Translations under genes and position numbers: made by a program
Shown here: positions 1-36,238 of the stretch, piece by piece
Position numbering within the stretch: the first letter of the stretch is position 1
Layout: each line of letters opens with the position of its first letter
Notes under the pieces: generated by a model
What the model was told of the DNA's origin: nothing
The model's database searches: none
Seen by the model: only the letters and a program-made list of their open reading frames with translations
NCBI GenBank assembly: GCA_963787125.1
Contig: CAWBBV010000001.1
Coordinates: 192,001-256,000 of the forward strand
Source of the DNA: an uncultured delta proteobacterium
Lineage (GTDB): Bacteria; Desulfobacterota; Desulfuromonadia; Geobacterales; DSM-12255
Direction of reading: 5' to 3'
Length of the DNA: 64,000 bases

Positions 1-50
1 CTTTTGCAGGGACACAGCCGGTGTCTTGATTGTATCAGGGGAAAACAGAA

Positions 51-245
51 TCAGCTGTTATGGCCCTGTACTACTGCACAACCGGCTTTTAGCTCTTCCA
101 CTAAACGATTGAATTCCGGGAAAGAAAGCAGTGACAGCAGTTCCTGTGGCGGCGTACCACTGAGATTCTCGCGATACATGTCAGCGGGTAAAACCGTTTC
201 CAGCCGCATGAGTTTAAGAAAACGTTGCTTTTTTGATCTGCTCAT
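51..245 (-). CDS. small hypothetical protein (64 aa)
   Basis: GAGGAG RBS upstream of ATG at 245 within the 51..356 ORF; no recognised domain. Confidence 0.4.
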   Translation of the reverse strand: MSRSKKQRFLKLMRLETVLPADMYRENLSGTPPQELLSLLSFPEFNRLVEELKAGCAVVQGHNS

Positions 246-455
246 GATGATCAACTCCTCTGCAGGGTGCTCCGACAATTTCTGCCATGGGAAAAACCCT
301 GACGATGAGCATGAGTTCACACAAGAATCACGCAACAGTGCATAGAACAGACGCATCTCTTTTCGAGTCCGGAGGGAAGGCTTTGCAGTCGAAATATTCC
401 TGCGCCCAAAGGCACTGAAGCAGAACTGCTGTGCAAACCCACGCAGCGGTTGTTA

Positions 456-577
456 TTCCGATTCTAAATCAAAGATGAAATCAAGGCGGCGAGGATTGAG
501 GCAACGAAGCAGTACATCAGTACGCTGAGGAGCCGAAGACAAGCCAACGAAGATAGCGCTTTGATTTAGGTTTGGAA
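456..577. repeat. MITE/REP-like interspersed element
   Basis: Imperfect terminal inverted repeats TTCCGATTCTAAATCAAAG ... CTTTGATTTAGGTTTGGAA, flanked by TTA on both sides (453-455, 578-580); non-coding. Confidence 0.5.
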
Positions 578-601
578 TTAGTCAATCGGTTTAATTGTTG
601 A

Positions 602-1189
602 TCAGGAAAGTATGACTTTCGGCGGGGGGTCAGGAGGATCGCCGTCACGTGAGGCAAGGCGCTCCGGTTGCAGACAGGTGAATTGAGTGACCGCTTGAAG
701 CGGTATTCCGGGTAAAAACCGGCAAGGGATATGCTGGGCTCTTTCTCCACCGGAAAAAGTCAGATCCTTGCCACTGCCGCAGGGACAGGTGCTGATACTG
801 ACTGCGTGAGTGTCTTTTCCGGATGATTTTTCCTCTTGAGCCGAGAGCGAAGCTTCATTTTCATGGTCAGCATGTTGCGACGGCTTGCTGCAGCAGCCTC
901 TGGCAGCTTTAGCTACAGGAAGCGCCGTTGCGGTTGGGCAGGATTTGAGATCTTCGTCATGGTGCAGAGCTTTATCTGCTGCCAGCCTCTTCTGCCAGCA
1001 GCAGCAACTGTGGGAAGCACTTCTTTCCGCAGAGCAACCACAAAGCCGGCAGTCACCGGAACATTCTTTCGCCAGTACCTGCAAAAACGGTTTTGACCGG
1101 GAACTGATTGAAGCAAGCGGAGAGAGGGTGATCAGCAGATAGACTGCTGTCATTATGAAAGAGATACTGCGTAGGTGAAATCTCTTCAT
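602..1189 (-). CDS. exported Cys/His-rich hypothetical protein
   Basis: N-terminal hydrophobic signal; CSGDCRLCGC, SCCCW, GCC and CPCGSG clusters; C-terminal DPPDPPPK. Confidence 0.7.
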   Translation of the reverse strand: MKRFHLRSISFIMTAVYLLITLSPLASISSRSKPFLQVLAKECSGDCRLCGCSAERSASHSCCCWQKRLAADKALHHDEDLKSCPTATALPVAKAARGCCSKPSQHADHENEASLSAQEEKSSGKDTHAVSISTCPCGSGKDLTFSGGERAQHIPCRFLPGIPLQAVTQFTCLQPERLASRDGDPPDPPPKVILS

Positions 1190-1273
1190 GAAGACCCTGA
1201 TAGGATACAAAGGTAAATAGTACTTATTTCCAATTAAAATAGCAGCTCCCATAACCGGAAGTCAATTGTTGAT

Positions 1274-2680
1274 TTAATTTCTAAGGAATCCAAATGCCTC
1301 TGCCGCCCCCCGGTGGGCGGCGGCAACACAGTCGTTCAGTCCGATTCCTGTATAGGAATTGCCGGTAAGAACCAGTCCCCGATGCTGTGCAAGCAGGCCG
1401 GCAAGAGCCTCAAGCCTTTTCCCGTGACCGACGGTATACTGAGGAATCGCTTTTTCGTGTCTGAAAATACGGATGAAAGAAGGGGGGGCAGAAATCCCCA
1501 TGGTGCGCTCAAGATCGTCTCTGACCCGCTTTTCGACCTCGGCATCGGAGAGCTTGATATACTGGGGGAAGCAGGCGCCTCCCATCATACTACGAAGAAG
1601 CACTTTCCCTTCAGGAGCCCGTCCCGCAAAGATGCTTGAATCCCAGAGTGTACCTAGGGTCGAGAGCTTTTCCTGTTTCGGGATCAGATAGCCGAAACCG
1701 TTCAGATCGGCCTGAATCTTCTCCTTTTCGTAACCAAAGCAGGCGATTGTCATGCTTGAGTATGGTATCTGTTGCAGCACCCCGCTGATAGCGGCATCGG
1801 TCTCTTCCAGAAACGCTGCTGAAGCGTAAGCCGGCGTTGCCAGGATGACCGCATCAGCCTGCAGCTCGCCTCGTGCCGTAATAACCCGCCACGGGACCGA
1901 GTTACCTTTGACAACCTTCACCACCTCTTCACCTGAACGAATAACGGTCATGCCGAGTTCGGCTGTCAGGATGTCGGTAAGATCCTGAATTCCGCCGCGA
2001 AATGAGGTCAGGACACCGGCTGGCCCGGCGGCGCTGCCAACAGCCTTGCCGGCCGCGACTTCAGCCTTTTTTTTCTTCGCCAGACGGATCATCGCCTTGA
2101 TTAGACCGCCATACTCCGCTTCCAGTTCTGCAATCCGCGGGAAGCATGATTTGAGTGACATGGTTTCGGGATCGCCGGCAAATATCCCGGAGACCATCGG
2201 TGCGATCAGCTTGTTGAGAGCCTCTTCCCCGAGTCTGCGTCTGCCGAAGGCTGCCAGGGTTTCGTCTGCATCGCCTTGAAACTGGGGGATAAACGGTTCC
2301 ATTGCCAGGCGAATCTTCCCCGGCCAGGAGATAAGGGAGCTTTTCAGGAATGATGGGCCGTTTTCCGGCAGCCGGTTGAGGATTCCGCCAGAGAAGATAA
2401 AGCGCTTGCGGGCATTGTCGTTACTACGCAGCAGGCGGGAATCTGCCTTCAGGTCGCGGCAGAGATCAAGCGTCTGGGGTTTACTGTCGAGAAAGCCGTT
2501 TGGTCCCCATTCGCAAAGATAGCCGTCATCCTTGATGCTCCAGATCTTCCCACCAAGTCTTGCTTCTTTCTCCAGAAGAGTGATGTTCAGCTCAAGCCCA
2601 TCCGTACGGGCTTTTTCACGCAGTATCCAGGCTGTCGCCAGTCCGGAAATTCCACCACCAACAATAATTACCTGTTTCAT
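1274..2680 (-). CDS. hemG: protoporphyrinogen/coproporphyrinogen oxidase (HemY family)
   Basis: IVGGGISGL FAD motif, EWGPNGF, AIPQYTVGH, GNSYTGIGLNDC. Confidence 0.93.
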   Translation of the reverse strand: MKQVIIVGGGISGLATAWILREKARTDGLELNITLLEKEARLGGKIWSIKDDGYLCEWGPNGFLDSKPQTLDLCRDLKADSRLLRSNDNARKRFIFSGGILNRLPENGPSFLKSSLISWPGKIRLAMEPFIPQFQGDADETLAAFGRRRLGEEALNKLIAPMVSGIFAGDPETMSLKSCFPRIAELEAEYGGLIKAMIRLAKKKKAEVAAGKAVGSAAGPAGVLTSFRGGIQDLTDILTAELGMTVIRSGEEVVKVVKGNSVPWRVITARGELQADAVILATPAYASAAFLEETDAAISGVLQQIPYSSMTIACFGYEKEKIQADLNGFGYLIPKQEKLSTLGTLWDSSIFAGRAPEGKVLLRSMMGGACFPQYIKLSDAEVEKRVRDDLERTMGISAPPSFIRIFRHEKAIPQYTVGHGKRLEALAGLLAQHRGLVLTGNSYTGIGLNDCVAAAHRGAAEAFGFLRN

Positions 2681-2789
2681 GTAGGTCAGACCTCAATTTA
2701 AATATTTTAAAGAATAGTAAAGCTGCTCCGCCTTTGTGTCAAGGTATAGCAGTCTTCACATGTGCAGGTAGATTGAGGGATTTAAATAT

Positions 2790-2826
2790 AAAAGAGGGGA
2801 CAGCCTGTTGGCTGCCCCCTCTTTCT
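2790..2826 (-). terminator. intrinsic terminator of groESL
   Basis: AAAGAGGGGGCAGCC-loop-GGCTGTCCCCTCTTTT on the minus strand, downstream of groEL. Confidence 0.8.
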
Positions 2827-2871
2827 TACTACGTTTGCATGTCCTGAACGGTGAAAAGGTTGAAAAACCTT

Positions 2872-4566
<1,695 letters not shown>

Positions 4567-17307: not shown

Positions 17308-17456
17308 AAGTGATTCATTACAATAACGCACTGAATCCGCAAAAATTCAGTATTCCGCTCTGTAGACCCAATATTGAGGCCAAGTCATCAACTAAACGGC
17401 TGGAAGTGACCTGTAAAAACTGCCGAAAAATGTTTGATCACAAGGCGAAGTCATGA
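17304..17456 (+). CDS. small Cys-containing protein (50 aa)
   Basis: ATGA-coupled at both ends; VTCKNC motif. Confidence 0.55.
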   Translation: MKVIHYNNALNPQKFSIPLCRPNIEAKSSTKRLEVTCKNCRKMFDHKAKS

Positions 17457-19716
17457 GCGTCAAAACCCACTATACCGCCAAGGAACTGGCCGGACTACCG
17501 GGAATGCCTGAGAGCATTAAAGGTGTAATTGCACGTAATTATCCTTCCCAGCCAATTAAAAAGAAAAACGGCACAGACAGTAAATATCTGGAATACGCCC
17601 TTGCCTCCCTCCCGGCTGCCACTGTCAAGGCGCTGACCGGCAAAACCGGCAAAATAATCAAACTCCACCCTGAAATCGAACAGGCCGAAAAAGAACAACA
17701 ACGCCTCGACGCCCGTGCCCAGGGGATGGAACTGTTTAACCGTCTCCCCCTTGAAAAACAGCGCCCAGTCCAGGCAAAAATAGAACTGATCGCCGCCGCC
17801 GAGCGCTATCTGCGCAGTTGCCGGATAAACCGCACCGCCGGACAGAACGCCTTTGTTCATGAATATAACCTGGGGCGAAGCGACGCCCCCGCCTGGGTGC
17901 GTGACCATATCCGCCACCTCCACGCCAGTACCCTGCGCGACTGGATCGCCACTGAAGATTCTTTAGGGATAGTCGGTCTGGTGGATTGCTACGGCAACCG
18001 CAAAGACCAGGGGATCATTGAGACCTGGAACGCCACCACCCTGGCAAACGGCACGGTAAAAGCCCCCATGGCCGACACCCTGAGAGCTCTCCTGCTTCAG
18101 TACCCCAAGATCAACGAGAAAAAGGCCAACGAAGCGCTGCGCGGCATCCTTCCCGGAGCCCCCTATATCTCCGGCAAAACCGTCAAGCGCTACCTGGACA
18201 AATGGATAGCGAATAATGCCCAGCAGTACGCTATTGCCGTTAATCCCGATGATTACAAGAACCGGATGCAGCCCGCCTTTGGCTCCCGCTCTGAAGGGAT
18301 CGACGGCCCCAACCAGCTCTGGGAAATCGACGCCACCCCGGCGGATCTGCTCCTGATTGATGGCCGCTACAAGATCATCGGCGTTACCGATGTGGGCGTC
18401 GCCCGTCTGAAATATTACGTCACCAAAACAGAAAAAGCGCGGGACAACGCCTTTGCCATCCGCAACTGCCTGCTTGATTGGGGCGTCCCCAAAAACGGCA
18501 CCATCACCACCGACCAGGGGAGCGCCTACATCGGCGAGCACTTCAGCCGCGTCCTATCCGATCTGGATATCCACCAGCACATCTGCCAGCCCTTCAGCGG
18601 TGATGAAAAGCCGCATATCGAGCGCAGTTTCCGCACCTGGAGTCACGACCTGATCGAACTGACCCCCGGCTATTGCGGCCACAACGTCGCCGACAAAAAA
18701 GAGATCGAAGCCCGCAAAACCTTTGCCCAGCGCCTCATGACCAAAGGGGCAGAGATCGAAGTCTCTTTAACTTCCACTCAGCTGCAGGCCCAGATAGACC
18801 GCTGGATCGCCACCTATCACAACACCGTCCACTCGCGCCTGCAGAAAACACCCAACCAGGCACTTGCCCAGTGGAACGGTCAGCTCTACCACATCAGCGA
18901 CGAACGCGCCCTGGATGTGCTCCTCTGCGAAGCCGTCCGCCGGGGGGCAAACTGCCGATCATCGGCAAAAAAGGGATCAAGGTCAATGGCGGCAACTATA
19001 TCCATACGGCGCTGCATGACCGCGTCGGCGAAAAGTGCCGCGCCTTTCAGGACCCCTCAGATTTGGGGCGGATCATCGTCCACATCCTGAACAGCAGTCA
19101 CAATATCTGGGAATTCCTCTGTATCGCCGAAGACCCGGCCAGAACCGGCATCTCCATGGCCGAGGTCGCCACGGTTACCCGCCACCTGCACAACGACCAT
19201 AAAAAAGAGATGCTGCGCCTTAATCGGGAAATTAAGAAGGAGATCAAGGGGATTGATATCGTTGATAAAGTCATGAACCACAGGGAGAAAATCGCAGCCC
19301 AGGCAGCTACGGCCCAAGCGAACGTCGTCTACCTGCCCAAAAAGAGCATTGAGTACAGCTCGCCCGGCCTCACTGCCGCACGGCAGGCATACCAGGCGAT
19401 GGAAGGGCGCACCGTCATTAATCACCCCCCCGAGCTTCAGGCAAAGCGCCTGACTGCCGCCACCCAAAAGGCAGAGCAAGAGCCGGTCAAAACCATAACC
19501 CGTCTCACTAAAGTAGTGCAGCTGCCTGGCACCGAGAAATTCATCGTCCCGGAAGGGCGGCGCGAGCGCTGGAATCTTTGGCTGCAGCTGCACAACAGGA
19601 TTGTGGCAATGGACGAGTTAAATCACGAGGAAATGAAGTTTTACAGCAGTTTTAAGGGGAGTCCCATCTGGGTCAGCTTTGCCAAGCCTCTGAAATTTGC
19701 CGGCACACAAAATTAA
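17453..19716 (+). CDS. Mu-type DDE transposase (MuA), split by a frameshift at G6 run 18942-18947
   Basis: N-terminal Mu HTH (YTAKELAGLPGMP), WEIDATPAD, TDQGSAY, KPHIERSFRT; C-terminal domain continues in ORF 18673..19716. Confidence 0.9.
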
Positions 19717-19782
19717 ACCCCACCGGGTGCAACCGGAAGGGTTTTGGGGCTCACGCCCATTACTACCAAAGGAGGATCAACA

Positions 19783-20568
19783 ATGTCACAAAACCAGCAG
19801 CATGTCAATCTGGACGTCACCCTCAACCCGGCAACCGCCAACCTGCTCAATGTCAGCCTGGCCATAGAGCTGGCCGAGGTCGCCATCAACCGGCGCAACC
19901 GCAGCCTGCCCGGCGTCGTCTGCTACAGCGGCCACTCGGGTCTAGGCAAAAGTACCGCTGCCGACTTCGTCGCCCTCACCTATCGCGGCTACTATGTCGA
20001 ATTTGCCAAACACTGGCGCAAACAGGAGCTGGTAGAGCGGATCATGTTCGTCATGGGCATTTCCAAAACCAAAGAGCTGAAAAACCTCACCGCCTGCATC
20101 GATGAGATCACCGCCGAACTCAGTGTCAGTAACCGCCCCCTCATTATCGATGAATTCGACCAGCTGACCGACCGGGACAACAGTGCCGATTACCTGGAGA
20201 TTATCCGCTACATCGCCAAACGCTCCAAAGGCTCTATCATGCTCATCGGCGAGGAAGGGCTCCCCCAGAAACTGGCCAAATACGAGAAATTCCACAACAT
20301 CATCCTCGACTGGAAACAGGCCGTCACCGCCGACATCGGCGACTGCCAGATACTGGCCCGCCACTACTACCCCGGCCTTGAGATCCATGACGACCTGCTG
20401 GGCAAGACCGTGCGTGACTGCCACGGCATCACCCGCCGCATCTGCACCAACCTGGAGGCCTTTGCCACCGAAGCCGACAGCCTCGGCATCACCTCAATAG
20501 GCCTGGCAGAGTGGGGCGCACGAGGGCTCAACACCGGCGCACCGCCAAAAGTGAGGAGCCTGAAATGA
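19783..20568 (+). CDS. MuB-like AAA+ transposition ATPase
   Basis: Walker A GHSGLGKS, Walker B LIIDEFD; AGGAGG RBS. Confidence 0.9.
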   Translation: MSQNQQHVNLDVTLNPATANLLNVSLAIELAEVAINRRNRSLPGVVCYSGHSGLGKSTAADFVALTYRGYYVEFAKHWRKQELVERIMFVMGISKTKELKNLTACIDEITAELSVSNRPLIIDEFDQLTDRDNSADYLEIIRYIAKRSKGSIMLIGEEGLPQKLAKYEKFHNIILDWKQAVTADIGDCQILARHYYPGLEIHDDLLGKTVRDCHGITRRICTNLEAFATEADSLGITSIGLAEWGARGLNTGAPPKVRSLK

Positions 20569-23013: not shown

Positions 23014-23140
23014 TAAAACCTGCGCGACCTGCGCCAACGCAACCCACAAAATGACCACTGAACCGTGCGTCACCTGTATCGAGCAGGGCGATAGTAAGAA
23101 AGCGCCCCACTACAGCATGTGGACGGCTAAAGAGGCGTAA
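23006..23140 (+). CDS. small Cys-rich protein (44 aa)
   Basis: AAGGAG RBS; MASKTCATC...EPCVTC. Confidence 0.55.
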   Translation: MASKTCATCANATHKMTTEPCVTCIEQGDSKKAPHYSMWTAKEA

Positions 23141-23144
23141 TTAA

Positions 23145-23222
23145 CTGCGAAACAGGCAAATTGACAAATTTGTCAATTTGCCTGTTATCCGGAGGTGGCG
23201 CTTCGGATCTGATGAGCAGCCA
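23145..23222 (+). ncRNA. type II hammerhead ribozyme
   Basis: CTGC-GAAA-stem III (CAGGCAAATTGAC/GTCAATTTGCCTG)-TT-stem I (ATCCGGAG/CTTCGGAT)-CTGATGA-GCAG; all catalytic core nucleotides present. Confidence 0.88.
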
Positions 23223-23233
23223 AAGGAAAAGAC

Positions 23234-23491
23234 ATGGCCATGCACGCCGCTAATCTCGACGACAGCCCGCGCCTGAAAAAGGTACTCAACTACCTCCGCT
23301 ATTACGGCGTCCGCACCACCATGGAGATTGCCACCGGCTGCCATGTCTGCGCCGTCAACTCCATCATCGCCGAACTGCGGGAAAATGGCTTTACGGTCAA
23401 CTGCACGGCAGTCAAAGGCCAGCGGGGCGTCTATCAGTACCAATTGATCGAAGGCGAGCAGCCGGCGCTTTTTGGAGGCTGCAATGGATAA
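23234..23491 (+). CDS. winged-HTH protein
   Basis: SPRLKKVLNYL...TTMEI...VCAVNSIIAELRENG. Confidence 0.7.
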   Translation: MAMHAANLDDSPRLKKVLNYLRYYGVRTTMEIATGCHVCAVNSIIAELRENGFTVNCTAVKGQRGVYQYQLIEGEQPALFGGCNG

Positions 23492-23710
23492 CAATGACCA
23501 GATCGTTCCTTTAGACCCGAGAGGGTCCCGCTCAGTCCAGGGTTATGCGCTCCAGCAGGGCGGCTACGTCCCCCGCCGGGTGCTCGGTGTCCAACACCTA
23601 GCCCAGTGGAAGAATTACCGAGATGACAGTCATGCCTGGCTCTGCAAGCTGATCGGTTTCGCCTTCCAGACCTTTGTCATAATGGCGCTCACGGCGAGCC
23701 GGCTGCGGAA

Positions 23711-24279: not shown

Positions 24280-24716
24280 ATGTCCACCCCCATTCAAATC
24301 AAGTTGATTCACACTTTAAAGGGCGCTTTAAGCCTTGATAACGATACCTACCGGGCCATTCTCGCCGGGTATGGTGTCGCCTCCTCCAAGGACTTGAGCC
24401 TATCCAAGGCCGGCCTGCTCCTCAAAGATCTGGAAGAAAAGGCCATTGCCGCCGGTGTCTGGAAAAATAAACAGAAAAAACCGGCCAAAGCCTGGCAGCC
24501 GCCCCAGAATATGGCCGGGGGAGAATCCCGCGCCTGCAGCTGCAGAAGATCGAAGCGCTCCTCACTATCGGCAAGCTCCCCTGGAGCTATGCCGACGCCA
24601 TCGCCAAGCAGATGCGCCTGGCCGATAAAATCGCCTGGGTGAAAGCAGCCGACCTGTACCGGATCATTACCGCGCTGACCAAAAAAGCACAAAAAGAGGG
24701 GTGGGCGCTTGTATAA
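24280..24716 (+). pseudogene. GemA/gp16 (DUF1018) regulator, frameshifted near 24520-24540
   Basis: QIKLIHTLKGALSLDNDTYRAIL...SSKDL then QLQKIEALL...W.YADAIAKQM in another frame. Confidence 0.75.
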
Positions 24717-24728
24717 GGAGCTACAGCT

Positions 24729-25150
24729 ATGAGTTGGCGCGATAATATCGATGTTTCCGAGTTGCCCGAAATCTACCGGACAATAGCCGACGCCATCGGC
24801 CCGGCCGCCATGATTCTTTTGGCAGAGCGCTGCCAGAAGATGCACCTCTATCTGAAACGGCTGCCGGCAGAGATCGACCCAGGCAACCTCTCGAAGATTA
24901 CCGCCTCGTCAGCGGCGTTATCGGCTGGGATAATAGTGTCAAGCTGGCTGCGGCGCTAACCAGTGAAACCTTTTACTTGAAAGCCGCAGATGTAGTCTTT
25001 CTCCCCGCCAAGATTCGCTACATCAGGGACAACTTCACCGGCGCGAATCACCGCCGCCTCTGCCTTGAAACCGGCCTGTCACAAGTCTATATCTACGAAA
25101 TTCTCCGCACTAAAAGCTGGGAACAACTGCCGCTGTTTGCTGCGGCATAA
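24729..25150 (+). pseudogene. Mor/C-family transcription activator, frameshifted
   Basis: LPEIYRTIADAIG...; C-terminal RYIRDNFTGANHRRLCLETGLSQVYIYEIL...QLPLFAAA; stop TAA 25148-25150. Confidence 0.75.
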
Positions 25151-25207
25151 CGGCCATGTGCTTGACCCGCCGTGCCTTATCGGGCGGCGTCCGAGCACTG
25201 GTTATCT
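25145..25207 (-). mobile_element. attC-like integron cassette recombination site 1
   Basis: Minus strand AGATAAC-CAGTGCTCGGACGCCGCC...GGCGGGTCAAGCAC-ATGGCC-GTTATGC; imperfect hairpin with extra bases. Confidence 0.7.
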
Positions 25208-25222
25208 GCGGAGGTGGATTAC

Positions 25223-25360
25223 ATGGAAGTGCAAGGCTTTGAGGTCAAGGTAGTCGATTGTTGGAATCTCAAGTGCAAATTTCGAGGCTTAGAAGGATGC
25301 ACACTGGATAGAATTACAATCGGTGGCAGTGGAACATGCAAGGAGTGTGATTATGAGTAA
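25223..25360 (+). CDS. small Cys4 protein (45 aa), cassette gene 1
   Basis: GGAGGT RBS; C....C......C....I.I...G.C pattern (DUF1540-like). Confidence 0.65.
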   Translation: MEVQGFEVKVVDCWNLKCKFRGLEGCTLDRITIGGSGTCKECDYE

Positions 25361-25583
25361 TTTGACCATGAAGGTCACGGCTGACCCTGGCTCACACCTG
25401 GACAAGGTTTGCATGGAATTGACGCGGCTGGCTACGGTTACGGGTGTCCGTGCAGAATGCCAATTCAACGGCACGGCCTTGATTGCCAAACCGAATGACA
25501 ACCCGTTCTATCTGGCAAGGGCGTTTGAGAATCGCAAGGAAGATGTCAAGTTTGTTTTTTCACACATGGGGATGCACGGATAG
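25353..25583 (+). CDS. hypothetical protein, cassette gene 2
   Basis: AAGGAG RBS; MSNLTMKVTADPGSHL...ECQFNGTALIAKP. Confidence 0.65.
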   Translation: MSNLTMKVTADPGSHLDKVCMELTRLATVTGVRAECQFNGTALIAKPNDNPFYLARAFENRKEDVKFVFSHMGMHG

Positions 25584-25584
25584 G

Positions 25585-25640
25585 AGATAACATAAAGCTC
25601 AGCTGCGAGCAGCGCGAGTCTGCTGCAGCGGCAGTTATGC
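25585..25640 (-). mobile_element. attC-like integron cassette recombination site 2
   Basis: Minus strand GCATAAC-TGCCG-CTGCAGCAGAC...GCAGCTGAGC-TTTAT-GTTATCT; typical attC layout. Confidence 0.75.
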
Positions 25641-25652
25641 CCCCGCCATAAC

Positions 25653-25721
25653 TCTTAACCCCGCATAAGATAACATTCCCCCGCTCCTGTTGTACGGTGC
25701 AGCTGCACCGGACAACAGGAG
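25653..25721 (+). promoter_or_regulatory. late promoter element copy 1 (Plys-like) with hairpin
   Basis: TCTTA-N8-TAAGA box, TACGGT -10-like hexamer, hairpin CTCCTGTTGT..CGGTGCAGCTGCACCG..ACAACAGGAG; near-identical copy at 36152. Confidence 0.75.
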
Positions 25722-25726
25722 TAATC

Positions 25727-26303
25727 ATGAACATCATCGAAGTCTTTACCAAGGTCATTTTAGCCAACGAGCTGGACGGTTCCACCGCCCACATTTACAA
25801 ATTCTCCGACCCGGATGGCATCCAGACCGGCAAGAGCGGCTGGTCGTTCGGCCTCTGCCAGTTCGACATCAACAACAATCCCACCGCCATTCTCTGCCTG
25901 CGCGACTGCGGCTTTACCGTCGATGAAATCGACCGGCTGCGTCACCAGACGCTCCAGGACATGAAGCCGATGAATATCAAACTCCTGGCGAACTGCACCA
26001 CCGTTGACCGCTACGACGATCAGCAGCTGGGGGAATGTCTCCAGGTGCCGGTCAACCTCTGTAAAAACTCCGCCATCAAGCTCGATCCCTCCGGCGTTAT
26101 CGCCCTTGCCGACTATCATAACCAGTTTTATATGAGCCGTGGCGGCAAGATGCATAATTATCTCAAGACCCTCCAGCGACCGGTCACTGCTGATGACATC
26201 TATCAGTTTATTCTCACGCTCCCCTGGGCTGAAGCGCCGTGACGACGTTGTGCGTCGCCATGAAAACATTATCCGTATTCTCAAGGAGGCCGGCAATGCT
26301 TAA
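25727..26303 (+). CDS. putative endolysin (lysozyme-like), frameshift near 26225
   Basis: First gene after late promoter; ANE and GKSGWSFGLCQFD motifs; C-terminus RRDDVVRRHENI in shifted frame. Confidence 0.6.
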
Positions 26304-27110: not shown

Positions 27111-27502
27111 AAACCGCCTGCCTGCTGATACTTCTGGCGCTGGCGCTGCTGGCTGTGCCTGCGGCGGCCCTCGACCCCGGCCCCTACGATCTGACCGTCT
27201 ATGCCAATGAAGATTATGTCCTTAACTTGACCCACAAGGCCAGCGACGTCCCGGTCAATCTGACCGGCTACAGCTTCAAGCTGCAGGCGAAGAAAACCGC
27301 CGCTTCGCCGGTCTTTCTGACGTTCTCGACAGCTGTCGTCAACGCCGCTGCCGGCCAGACCCGTCACTGGCTCACTAAGGGCACAACCAGGAACAACGCC
27401 AACAGCGCCGGTATTTACGATCTCATGCAGACCGCCCCCGACGGTAAGGTCAGCTACCGGGTGCAGGGTAAAATCCGTATTCTGGAGACCGTCACCCGAT
27501 GA
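27107..27502 (+). CDS. signal-peptide-bearing phage fibre adaptor-like protein
   Basis: [29 protein letters not shown]...GIYDL...DG..YRVQG...VTR beta-sandwich motif seen in phage structural adaptors. Confidence 0.65.
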
Positions 27503-28774
27503 AACGGCGCTATGATAAATACTTCTGGGGCCAGCTTATCTGCGTTGTCCTTTTCGCCATACTGCTGGGCTGCCTGTATCGGCAGGCCTTCGCCGAGACC
27601 GTCTCAATCATCGTTGATGCCCCGTCGCAAGCTATCACCGTTCAGACCCAGTCAACAACCATCACTCCCGAAATCGTCACCGTCACCGCAGTGGTTAATG
27701 TTACCGGCACTGAAACGGTTGAGGTTGTTATTCCCGGCCCCCAGGGCATTGCCGGCGCAACAACAACCGGCACCGGCGGCGGTGGCACTTGGGGGAGCAT
27801 CACCGGTACGCTTAGCGATCAGACTGATCTGCAGGCAGCGCTGAATAGTATCGCCACTACTCCAGGATCACAAGGCCCCACTGGCCCCCAAGGGGTTCAA
27901 GGCCCGACTGGACCAACCGGCCCGACAGGTTCGACAGGTTTGACAGGTTTGACAGGTTTGACAGGCGCAACAGGTTCGCAGGGGATTCAAGGTGTCCAGG
28001 GCCAGAAAGGCTATGACGGTTATGATGGTTTAACTGGCCCAACCGGCCCGGCTGGAGCAGCAGGCGCAACTGGCGCGCCGGGAGCAGCCGGCACTAATGG
28101 CACCAACGGCACCAACGGCACCAACGGTACCAACGGCACGAACGGTGTTGACGGCAAAACCGTCAGCTGCGCCATAACCGGCGGTATCCGCTCAATTCTC
28201 TATGACAAAACGGCAGCAACCCCGCCCCGGCCATGGTTGCTTTCGGTGTTGAAATGCGTGTCGACGGTACGGTTGTAACACCGACCTGCAGCTGGAGTGT
28301 CCCCGCCTCCGGGTCGCTACTCTCCGGCTCATCTGCAGCCTGAGTTTCACCCCGACGGTCAACGGTACCTTCACCGTCTCGGCTGATGACCGCGTCGATG
28401 TCGCCGTGACATACTCCGGGATTACCTGCAATGCCACCGCGCCGATTCCAACCACGAAAATCGGAGCTGACGGTGCCCAGGGCTCTCCGGACACCAAACA
28501 GCAGATTTACACCAAGATCAACGTCGCCACTACCGGCGATGTGCTCAATACCCAGGCGGGCAGTGGTGATGTCGACAGCTTCGCTTTTCGTACTATCCGG
28601 GCGAAGGGGGGAGATATCCATAGAGCCGATCTTGCCGTCGGTCAGACCTGGTATTACGCCCGGCCAACCGATGCCGCCACCGCAGCAAAGTGGGGGATTA
28701 AAACCTCAGGAGGAACACCACTTATACAATTTAATGCCGATGGCTCATTTACTGGCACTCTGGTGATCCGGTGA
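27499..28774 (+). CDS. signal-peptide-bearing collagen-like fibre protein (two frameshifts near 28207 and 28340)
   Basis: Signal ending [23 protein letters not shown] fibre motif; about 30 G-X-Y triplets; C-terminal part in ORF 28406..28774. Confidence 0.7.
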
Positions 28775-36151: not shown

Positions 36152-36220
36152 TCTTATCCCCACATAAGAGAAATGATCCCCGCTCCTGTTATACGGTGCA
36201 GCTGCACCGCATAACAGGAG
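36152..36220 (+). promoter_or_regulatory. late promoter element copy 2 (PI-like) with hairpin
   Basis: TCTTA-N8-TAAGA, TACGGT, hairpin CTCCTGTTAT..CGGTGCAGCTGCACCG..ATAACAGGAG. Confidence 0.75.
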
Positions 36221-36238
36221 TAATCAAGGAGGGGGTAC

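Follow-up and report, generated by a model that had tools for sequence, protein, structure and literature searches.

A candidate integron-type gene cassette at a hairpin site between mor and the lysis module of a Mu-like prophage

We describe a 440-bp segment of a Mu-like prophage that is, in our judgement, probably an integron-type gene cassette: a unit at positions 25151-25590, inserted by an IntI-type tyrosine recombinase into a hairpin site of the phage (25585-25641, with its left half at 25144-25150). The prophage belongs to an uncultured delta proteobacterium (Desulfobacterota; Desulfuromonadia; Geobacterales; DSM-12255) and lies on contig CAWBBV010000001.1 of assembly GCA_963787125.1. 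We analysed positions 192,001 to 256,000 of the forward strand; this stretch of 64,000 nucleotides is called the window, and its own coordinates are used throughout. The segment sits between mor, the gene of a late activator, and the late promoter region. It stands beyond chance through the match of its first hairpin to R1, a covariance model of host attC sites, through the membership of its second hairpin in a family of phage hairpins, and through the homology breakpoints that separate it from its surroundings when it is compared with a second copy of the cassette. Its parts, including two open reading frames (ORFs), are as follows.

25144..25150, + strand: left half-site GGCATAA, which on its sequence would remain with the phage; homology to the second copy begins at 25148
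25145..25207, + strand, the bottom (recombining) strand: hairpin 1, attC of the cassette, with cores GCATAAC and GTTATCT; matched by R1
25151..25590, + strand: predicted mobile cassette, made up of the attC, ORF1, ORF2 and the end AGATAA; 440 bp when cut at AA/C
25223..25360, + strand: ORF1, 45 amino acids, Cys-rich, with GGAGG upstream
25353..25583, + strand: ORF2, 76 amino acids, with AAGGAG upstream
25585..25641, + strand: hairpin 2, proposed recipient site, S-type family, with cores AGATAAC and GTTATGCC, a 10-bp stem and a single G bulging from the 5' arm

Hairpin 1 is an attC site. The attC cores follow the consensus RYYYAAC and GTTRRRY; hairpin 1 has the AAC and the GTT, with agreement at 6 of 7 positions in GCATAAC and 5 of 7 in GTTATCT. 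R1 was built from 15 attC sites, all from the array of a chromosomal integron on contig C4 of the host genome. The sites were aligned with MAFFT, and the consensus structure was set by hand from the folds of individual sites because RNAalifold predicted none on that alignment. With filters off, R1 matches hairpin 1 over its full length (model positions 1-69 of 69) with no broken pair, at 40.7 bits and an E-value of 3.1e-7 in the window, E-values from this model being rough. Nine matches in the window reach E<=10; this one alone is significant, and the runner-up scores 10 bits. Across the genome, 40 matches reach the same threshold (the C4 array region accounts for 19 and other places for 21, including the window site), among which hairpin 1 ranks 21st with E 2.0e-5. 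Its bulges lie on the 3' arm of the + strand and align with the two 3'-arm bulges of the R1 consensus, as in the host family. Judged by sequence and modelled structure, hairpin 1 belongs to the same attC family as the sites of the host chromosomal integron.

The host integron also fixes the strand on which the hairpin is to be read. Two integron integrases are encoded in the host genome, on contig C4 and, at 106715-107650, on contig C23; both are open frames without stops and score above the TIGR02249 cut-off (341 and 338 bits against 265). The window has no TIGR02249 match, so the search agrees with the original prediction, which saw no integrase there and looked to a host enzyme acting in trans. 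On C4, intI lies on the + strand at 161732-162667. Upstream of it runs a 33-kb array with long ORFs on the - strand and AAC...GTT hairpins between them, with cores GCATAAC, GTTATGC and GTTATAC. R1 matches in this array run opposite to the cassette ORFs and on the strand of intI; the R1 strand is therefore the bottom strand. In the window, R1 matches the + strand, which is also the strand of ORF1 and ORF2, and the two genes are thus inverted relative to canonical cassettes. The canonical order (ORF on the top strand, then attC) is not the order found here, and the claim that the genes run opposite to those of normal cassettes and along with phage transcription is borne out.

A second copy of the cassette, found through ORF2 on the metagenome contig L073, shows where the unit ends. 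L073 3774-3841 is 94% identical over 68 nt to window 25148-25215 (the attC), and L073 4001-4239 is 90% identical over 239 nt to window 25353-25591 (ORF2). A base-by-base alignment finds the flanks unrelated, on the left up to TAAC (25148-25151) and on the right from the base after AGATAAC (25591). The two homologous stretches thus form a discrete unit that ends at AA/C, which is G/TT on the other strand, and that occurs in more than one context. These breakpoints agree with the crossovers at 25150/25151 and 25590/25591 predicted when + is the bottom strand and disagree with those predicted for the opposite polarity (25201 and 25634). The expectation that homology in another context would break at the cores therefore holds. 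In the L073 copy, ORF1 is replaced by an unrelated Cys-rich ORF of 52 amino acids. The unit stands inside an array of seven R1 matches, all on the gene strand; genes there encode helix-turn-helix (HTH), HNH and NADAR proteins, and Dam and then a small terminase subunit follow just downstream of the array region (1-4400). From its gene content, the L073 region appears to be phage-like, an attC array with inverted genes, and not a Mu-like phage in the part seen.

The geometry of the window fits the same ends. The four core motifs, GGCATAAC (25144-25151), GTTATCT (25201-25207), AGATAAC (25585-25591) and GTTATGCC (25634-25641), and the two small genes between the hairpins are found where the original prediction placed them. 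GGCATAA together with C25151 is complementary at 8 of 8 positions to GTTATGCC, and the cores of the cassette chain at 7 of 7 (GTTATCT with AGATAAC). We infer a left crossover between 25150 and 25151; a cut at AA/C then gives 25151-25590, in line with the unit of about 440 bp proposed earlier. Its removal restores a single site with 8/8 core pairing, and the mor stop codon is indeed supplied by the left core, TAA at 25148-25150 lying inside GGCATAAC. Base composition changes at the insert as well: GC content is about 0.47-0.52 against 0.54-0.58 in the flanks, and GC skew is positive in the insert and negative around it.

Hairpin 2 belongs to a family of hairpins, which we call S-type, that recurs in related phages. 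A related Mu-like phage on contig L074, whose Mor is 56% identical, has a homologous hairpin at 3873-3929, with similarity limited to the core-to-core stretch. A degenerate pattern drawn from these two copies finds the hairpin in one metagenome-assembled genome and four IMG/VR contigs, among them the record of L074 itself. A hidden Markov model (HMM) of the five copies outside the window recovers window 25587-25640 on the + strand at 23.3 bits and E 1.6e-4, its only match with E<0.9 in the 4.2-Mb genome. The family is bounded by complementary AAC/GTT cores and keeps to particular places: immediately before the lysis module in the window and in L074, L083 and L085, and in the early region near gemA in L082, L081 and prophages of related genomes. 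Chaining to the neighbouring site is 7/7 in the window and in L074; in L082 the hairpin stands in an attC array beside a 37.6-bit R1 site, with no 7/7 chaining there. Spacer asymmetry in hairpin 2 (10 nt against 4 nt) has the same sense as in the host family (7 against 3), and a G-T pair in the S-type stem favours folding of the + strand.

What lies 5' of the hairpin differs between relatives. L074 carries a different cassette there, an attC-like site at 3033-3093 with a radical-SAM gene, whose cores chain 7/7 (GTTATAG with CTATAAC). L085 has no credible attC between mor and the hairpin, so its site looks unoccupied. Alternative and apparently empty sites are thus both found among relatives, as the original prediction led one to expect. 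No R1 match occurs at the mor end in eight loci found through the gene downstream of the site or in the prophages of genomes G003 and G017. We read hairpin 2 as a putative phage-resident attC-like docking site, recognised by its own family profile and not by R1; it would fold and work as an attC.

One Mu-like relative brings an integrase of its own. G023, the IMG/VR record behind L010 and L080, is 43 kb long with an estimated completeness of 91% and encodes MuA, MuB, GemA and Mor. Its integron integrase (L080 10389-11444) lies directly upstream of gemA, scores 390 bits with TIGR02249 and is 42% identical to the host C4 enzyme; aligned with this phage enzyme, the host integrases show the HxxR, GH and Y boxes conserved. 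Five attC-like sites precede the gene (region L080 8703-11444). One of them scores 34 bits with R1, and three consecutive junctions of the array show 7/7 core chaining. Integrase and sites stand in canonical geometry, and small + strand genes, MazG among them, lie on the R1 strand. In both the G023 and the L073 arrays the genes with recognisable domains (HNH, NADAR, MazG) are inverted as in the window, and as read from these sites the genes appear inverted relative to attC in every phage array observed. Among 70 IMG/VR loci with IntI-like genes (L086-L155), about 50 are 39-67% identical over most of their length, and gemA stands beside the IntI-like gene in one record, G023.

These elements suggest a simple route of capture. 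The circular cassette would have comprised hairpin 1, ORF1, ORF2 and the end AGATAA/C, and the phage site before capture would have read GGCATAA/C, hairpin 2, GTTATGCC. An IntI-type recombinase would join the circle to the phage hairpin by bottom-strand exchange at AA/C; exchange at 25150/25151 and 25590/25591 would leave the two hybrid sites of the present day, with the mor stop codon intact. The enzyme was most likely one of the two host integron integrases, acting in trans. With its genes on the bottom-strand side, 3' of their own attC, the cassette would become co-directional with phage transcription. No promoter stands out within it, and the genes are therefore probably read through from the mor transcript.

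The two cassette genes form a compact pair. The 3' end of ORF1 and the start of ORF2 overlap by 8 bases, and both genes have a good Shine-Dalgarno sequence; they may be expressed with mor. Neither product has a Pfam, PHROG or NCBIfam match or a paralogue in the genome. ORF2 has six database matches: five of 76 amino acids with 72-95% identity and gap-free alignment, and a sixth that is a 48-amino-acid fragment. Searches of collections of genome contigs and viral contigs returned no relative of ORF2. An AlphaFold2 (AF2) model predicts a small alpha/beta fold (predicted local distance difference test score 74.8); with it, Foldseek finds no match at E<=0.001 in the PDB. In the atlas, the closest clusters (0.86-0.88, under the 0.9 confidence level) consist of viral hypothetical proteins.

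The carrier is Mu-like in its gene set, with an HTH repressor, a MuA-type transposase, a MuB-type ATPase, GemA and a Mor/C-type activator. Features around the site are these.

17453-19716, two overlapping frames: MuA-type transposase (HTH_Tnp_Mu_1, rve, Mu-transpos_C)
19744-20568: MuB-type ATPase (AAA_22)
24280-24642: GemA; gemA is split over two frames within 24280-24716
24729..25150, + strand: mor/C-type late activator, read across two frames (24729-24959 and 24977-25150), a single frameshift lying near 24885-24900; stop codon TAA at 25148-25150
25644..25726, + strand: late promoter region, ATAAC ... AGATAAC ... CCCCC motif, then a hairpin with 19-nt arms (25684-25721, z -6.1), the next gene following directly
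25727..26242, + strand: first gene after the site, 171 amino acids, no family match, in the place of the lysis module; 39-60% identity in eight related phage loci

Both pieces of mor match phrog_836 (profile positions 9-52 and 87-132 of 133), and relatives have the gene in a single frame. A similar late promoter motif precedes the lysis gene of L035. Within the window, 36152-36226 is an 85% second copy of the late promoter region and 19-nt-arm hairpin of 25653-25727, and is probably another promoter that depends on the late activator. Between mor and the late promoter, relatives have in common a promoter-like element (TTGACA...TA-rich) with an intrinsic terminator behind it, a combination not found in the window; it lies just after mor in L033, L034, L010 and L035 and just after the S-type hairpin in L074, L083 and L085, and possibly encodes a small RNA. 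At 27499-28278 the late region also has an ORF whose long Gly-X-Y repeats are collagen-like and which includes a run of GTN repeats. Between two small genes at 23139-23190 lies a perfect 32-base palindrome flanked by AATTAAC and GTTATCC and 83% conserved in the same-genus prophage L021. As an attC it was considered and rejected: a 7/7 core complement exists at 23486-23492, but the site does not close and the G of GTT forms part of the stem. It probably serves as an operator or a terminator.

The host genome holds further integron material. The C4 integron (C4:126000-162700, outside the window) has about 19 attC sites and, on the + strand and opposite to the cassettes, three copies of a 446-amino-acid group II intron reverse transcriptase (RVT_1 and GIIM). 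About 20 further R1 matches lie on contigs C1, C5, C6, C12, C14, C16 and C18 (four, for example, on C5 at 23.7-36.9 kb), as scattered attC sites or small clusters with no integrase nearby. For 17 other attC matches in the genome, far ends were sought by core complement, and a 7/7 complement was found for 3, of which one proved to be the following attC in its array; nothing can be inferred from them about the ends of solo sites.

Several observations weigh against the insertion of a cassette into the phage hairpin site. The sites behind R1 were picked by our own hairpin scan and given a hand-set structure, and a sequence-only HMM of the host attC sites finds hairpin 1 at E 0.16 genome-wide, which weakens the hairpin observation on its own. 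Of the two expected attC sites, R1 recognises hairpin 1 and not hairpin 2, which it scores at 3.6 bits on the + strand and -2.1 on the - strand, R1 being a narrow family model with which even the chain-obeying sites of the G023 array score 4.9-12.6 bits. Hairpin 2 has a lone bulge, a G, in its 5' arm on the + strand; in the host family, by contrast, two bulges occupy the 3' arm. Fold energies of both hairpins on both strands lie within the range of shuffled sequences (z -0.5 to -1.3, with 18 to 54 of 200 shuffles at least as stable). The swapped cores, offered as a signature of insertion, are complementary as claimed, but they carry less statistical weight than claimed: crosswise 7/7 + 7/7 AAC...GTT closures number 169 in the 4.2-Mb genome, about 2.6 per 64 kb, and in 52 of them both AAC/GTT-constrained hairpins fold at -7 kcal/mol or below. 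Because the hairpins are no better than shuffles and closures are common, the swapped-core argument needed independent support. The cassette is absent from the host's own integron arrays, and no near-identical phage with an empty site at the same position was found. An antisense ORF at 25289-25501 competes with ORF2: the two share third codon positions, and for this reason the substitution pattern between the two ORF2 copies fits either frame. Support for the + strand frame as the probable gene comes from the Shine-Dalgarno sequence, the constant length of 76 amino acids and the genes with recognised domains in other phage arrays. Finally, MuA, gemA and mor each occupy two frames, which points either to a decaying prophage or to indel errors in the assembly. 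With decay a possibility, the cassette may have inserted in situ, into a resident prophage rather than during the life cycle of a phage; cassette uptake may be an active phage strategy, or a resident prophage may have been hit.

With these points in hand, the alternatives can be compared. A cassette made by IntI might have entered a secondary site that is no attC and only happens to contain AAC, hairpin 2 being a phage element with another job, for example terminator-like or regulatory after the middle operon. The low R1 score of hairpin 2 and its bulge on the unexpected arm would suit such an element, as would the terminator that occupies the corresponding stretch between mor and the late promoter in relatives lacking the hairpin, and the ATAAC motif is also part of the late promoter repeats. 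We nevertheless regard this as unlikely. The left flank matches the 3' end of hairpin 2 at 8 of 8 positions, which a single folded site would predict; S-type hairpins are bounded by AAC/GTT cores, at which their homology stops; they lie inside attC arrays elsewhere in phage genomes (L082, and L021 of G017) and have no T-run; and weak sites of G023 that obey chaining score equally low with R1.

Quite unlikely, in our view, is an origin of the segment in ordinary phage-phage recombination, a moron exchange by homologous or illegitimate means with the attC sites as passengers or as short patches of homology. Phage genomes are mosaic, and the region from mor to the lysis module is variable in all relatives. 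Moreover, ORF1 differs between the two cassette copies while both ends are shared, and therefore some exchange has taken place inside the unit without use of the cores. Set against this, both ends of the shared unit fall on AA/C cores (to within the 4 and the 7 bases in common), crosswise closure of the two hybrid sites is 7/7 and 8/8, and L073 is not Mu-like in the part seen and offers no flanking homology that could drive homologous exchange. That hairpins and matching cores surround two small phage genes by chance is barely credible: the 169 closed core configurations and the shuffle-range fold energies would allow it, but the 40.7-bit match to R1, the HMM match of hairpin 2 and the second cassette copy with its exact breakpoints would all be left unexplained. 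Site-specific insertion of a cassette into a phage hairpin thus remains the reading that we prefer.

The findings suggest that Mu-like phages swap accessory genes through the integron recombination system. A more general proposal, to which we give about even weight, is that Mu-like phages of this bacterial group run a cassette economy of their own, with attC hairpins specific to phages in two set positions (before gemA and before the lysis module), genes on the bottom-strand side and hence always transcribed along with the phage, a pool shared with unrelated phages, and a recombinase that is the host's in trans or, in at least one lineage and with canonical geometry, encoded by the phage. Integrons are known mainly as bacterial platforms for resistance genes and, more recently, for anti-phage defence genes. 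Should phages maintain docking sites for the recombinase of these platforms, cassettes could pass both ways between host arrays and phage genomes, and phage accessory genes (morons, possibly counter-defence genes) would gain a defined site-specific route of gain, loss and exchange. Reversed gene direction would serve as a simple sequence rule that separates phage-adapted from bacterial cassettes. The system is small and directly testable, with one 440-bp unit, two sites and two candidate integrases.

One of the closest known systems is the sedentary chromosomal integron, as on C4 of the host. It shares with the phage site the attC family recognised by R1, the crossover position and the cores GCATAAC / GTTATGC; it differs in that the phage site has no adjacent intI or attI, holds a single cassette and carries its ORFs on the bottom-strand instead of the top-strand side. 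Cassettes can also insert at non-classical genomic sites (secondary sites, attG), and such insertions likewise leave a cassette away from an integron platform, a GTT/AAC triplet being the place of one crossover. The recipient here also has a stem and a 3' core that matches, and further members of its family are found in related phages, features that point to a folded attC-like partner rather than to a plain double-stranded site. Phage morons are accessory genes inserted between conserved phage genes. The cassette resembles them as a pair of small genes of odd composition at a module boundary, read with phage transcription; here, unlike in morons generally, the gain can be assigned to a defined site-specific mechanism whose recombination sites are recognisable.

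Integron parts in phages are already on record. Qi et al. (2023, Front Microbiol; PMC9892861) report them in 21 of 10,705 phage genomes, as 3 complete integrons, 1 In0 and 17 CALINs, a CALIN being at least two attC sites without a nearby integrase; they also report that IntI1 recombines attC sites from virulent phages, and propose phages as a route of cassette transfer. Measured against the CALIN definition, the window has one site that matches the attC model, a second that matches the HMM of its own family, and no integrase match. The integron-bearing prophages named in the text of that paper are Vibrio phages, a P1 phage-plasmid and the Shewanella prophage M16-3, which is P2-like (PMC8541194); no Mu-like phage is among those named there, and the supplementary tables may list further cases. 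A full-text literature search, judged on titles and the openings of abstracts, found no integron in a Mu-like phage. The published phage cases, as described in that text, and the present one are alike in having attC sites and cassettes in temperate or virulent phages with no integrase nearby. They differ in gene direction, which is typical in two of the virulent phages (PMC9892861) and inverted here, and in the carrier, here a transposable Mu-like phage with a phage-specific hairpin family fixed before the lysis module and one cassette in two contexts. What goes beyond the published cases is the conserved docking hairpin on the phage side, the uniform inversion of the genes, the exact breakpoints of a shared cassette and a Mu-like relative that encodes an integrase itself.

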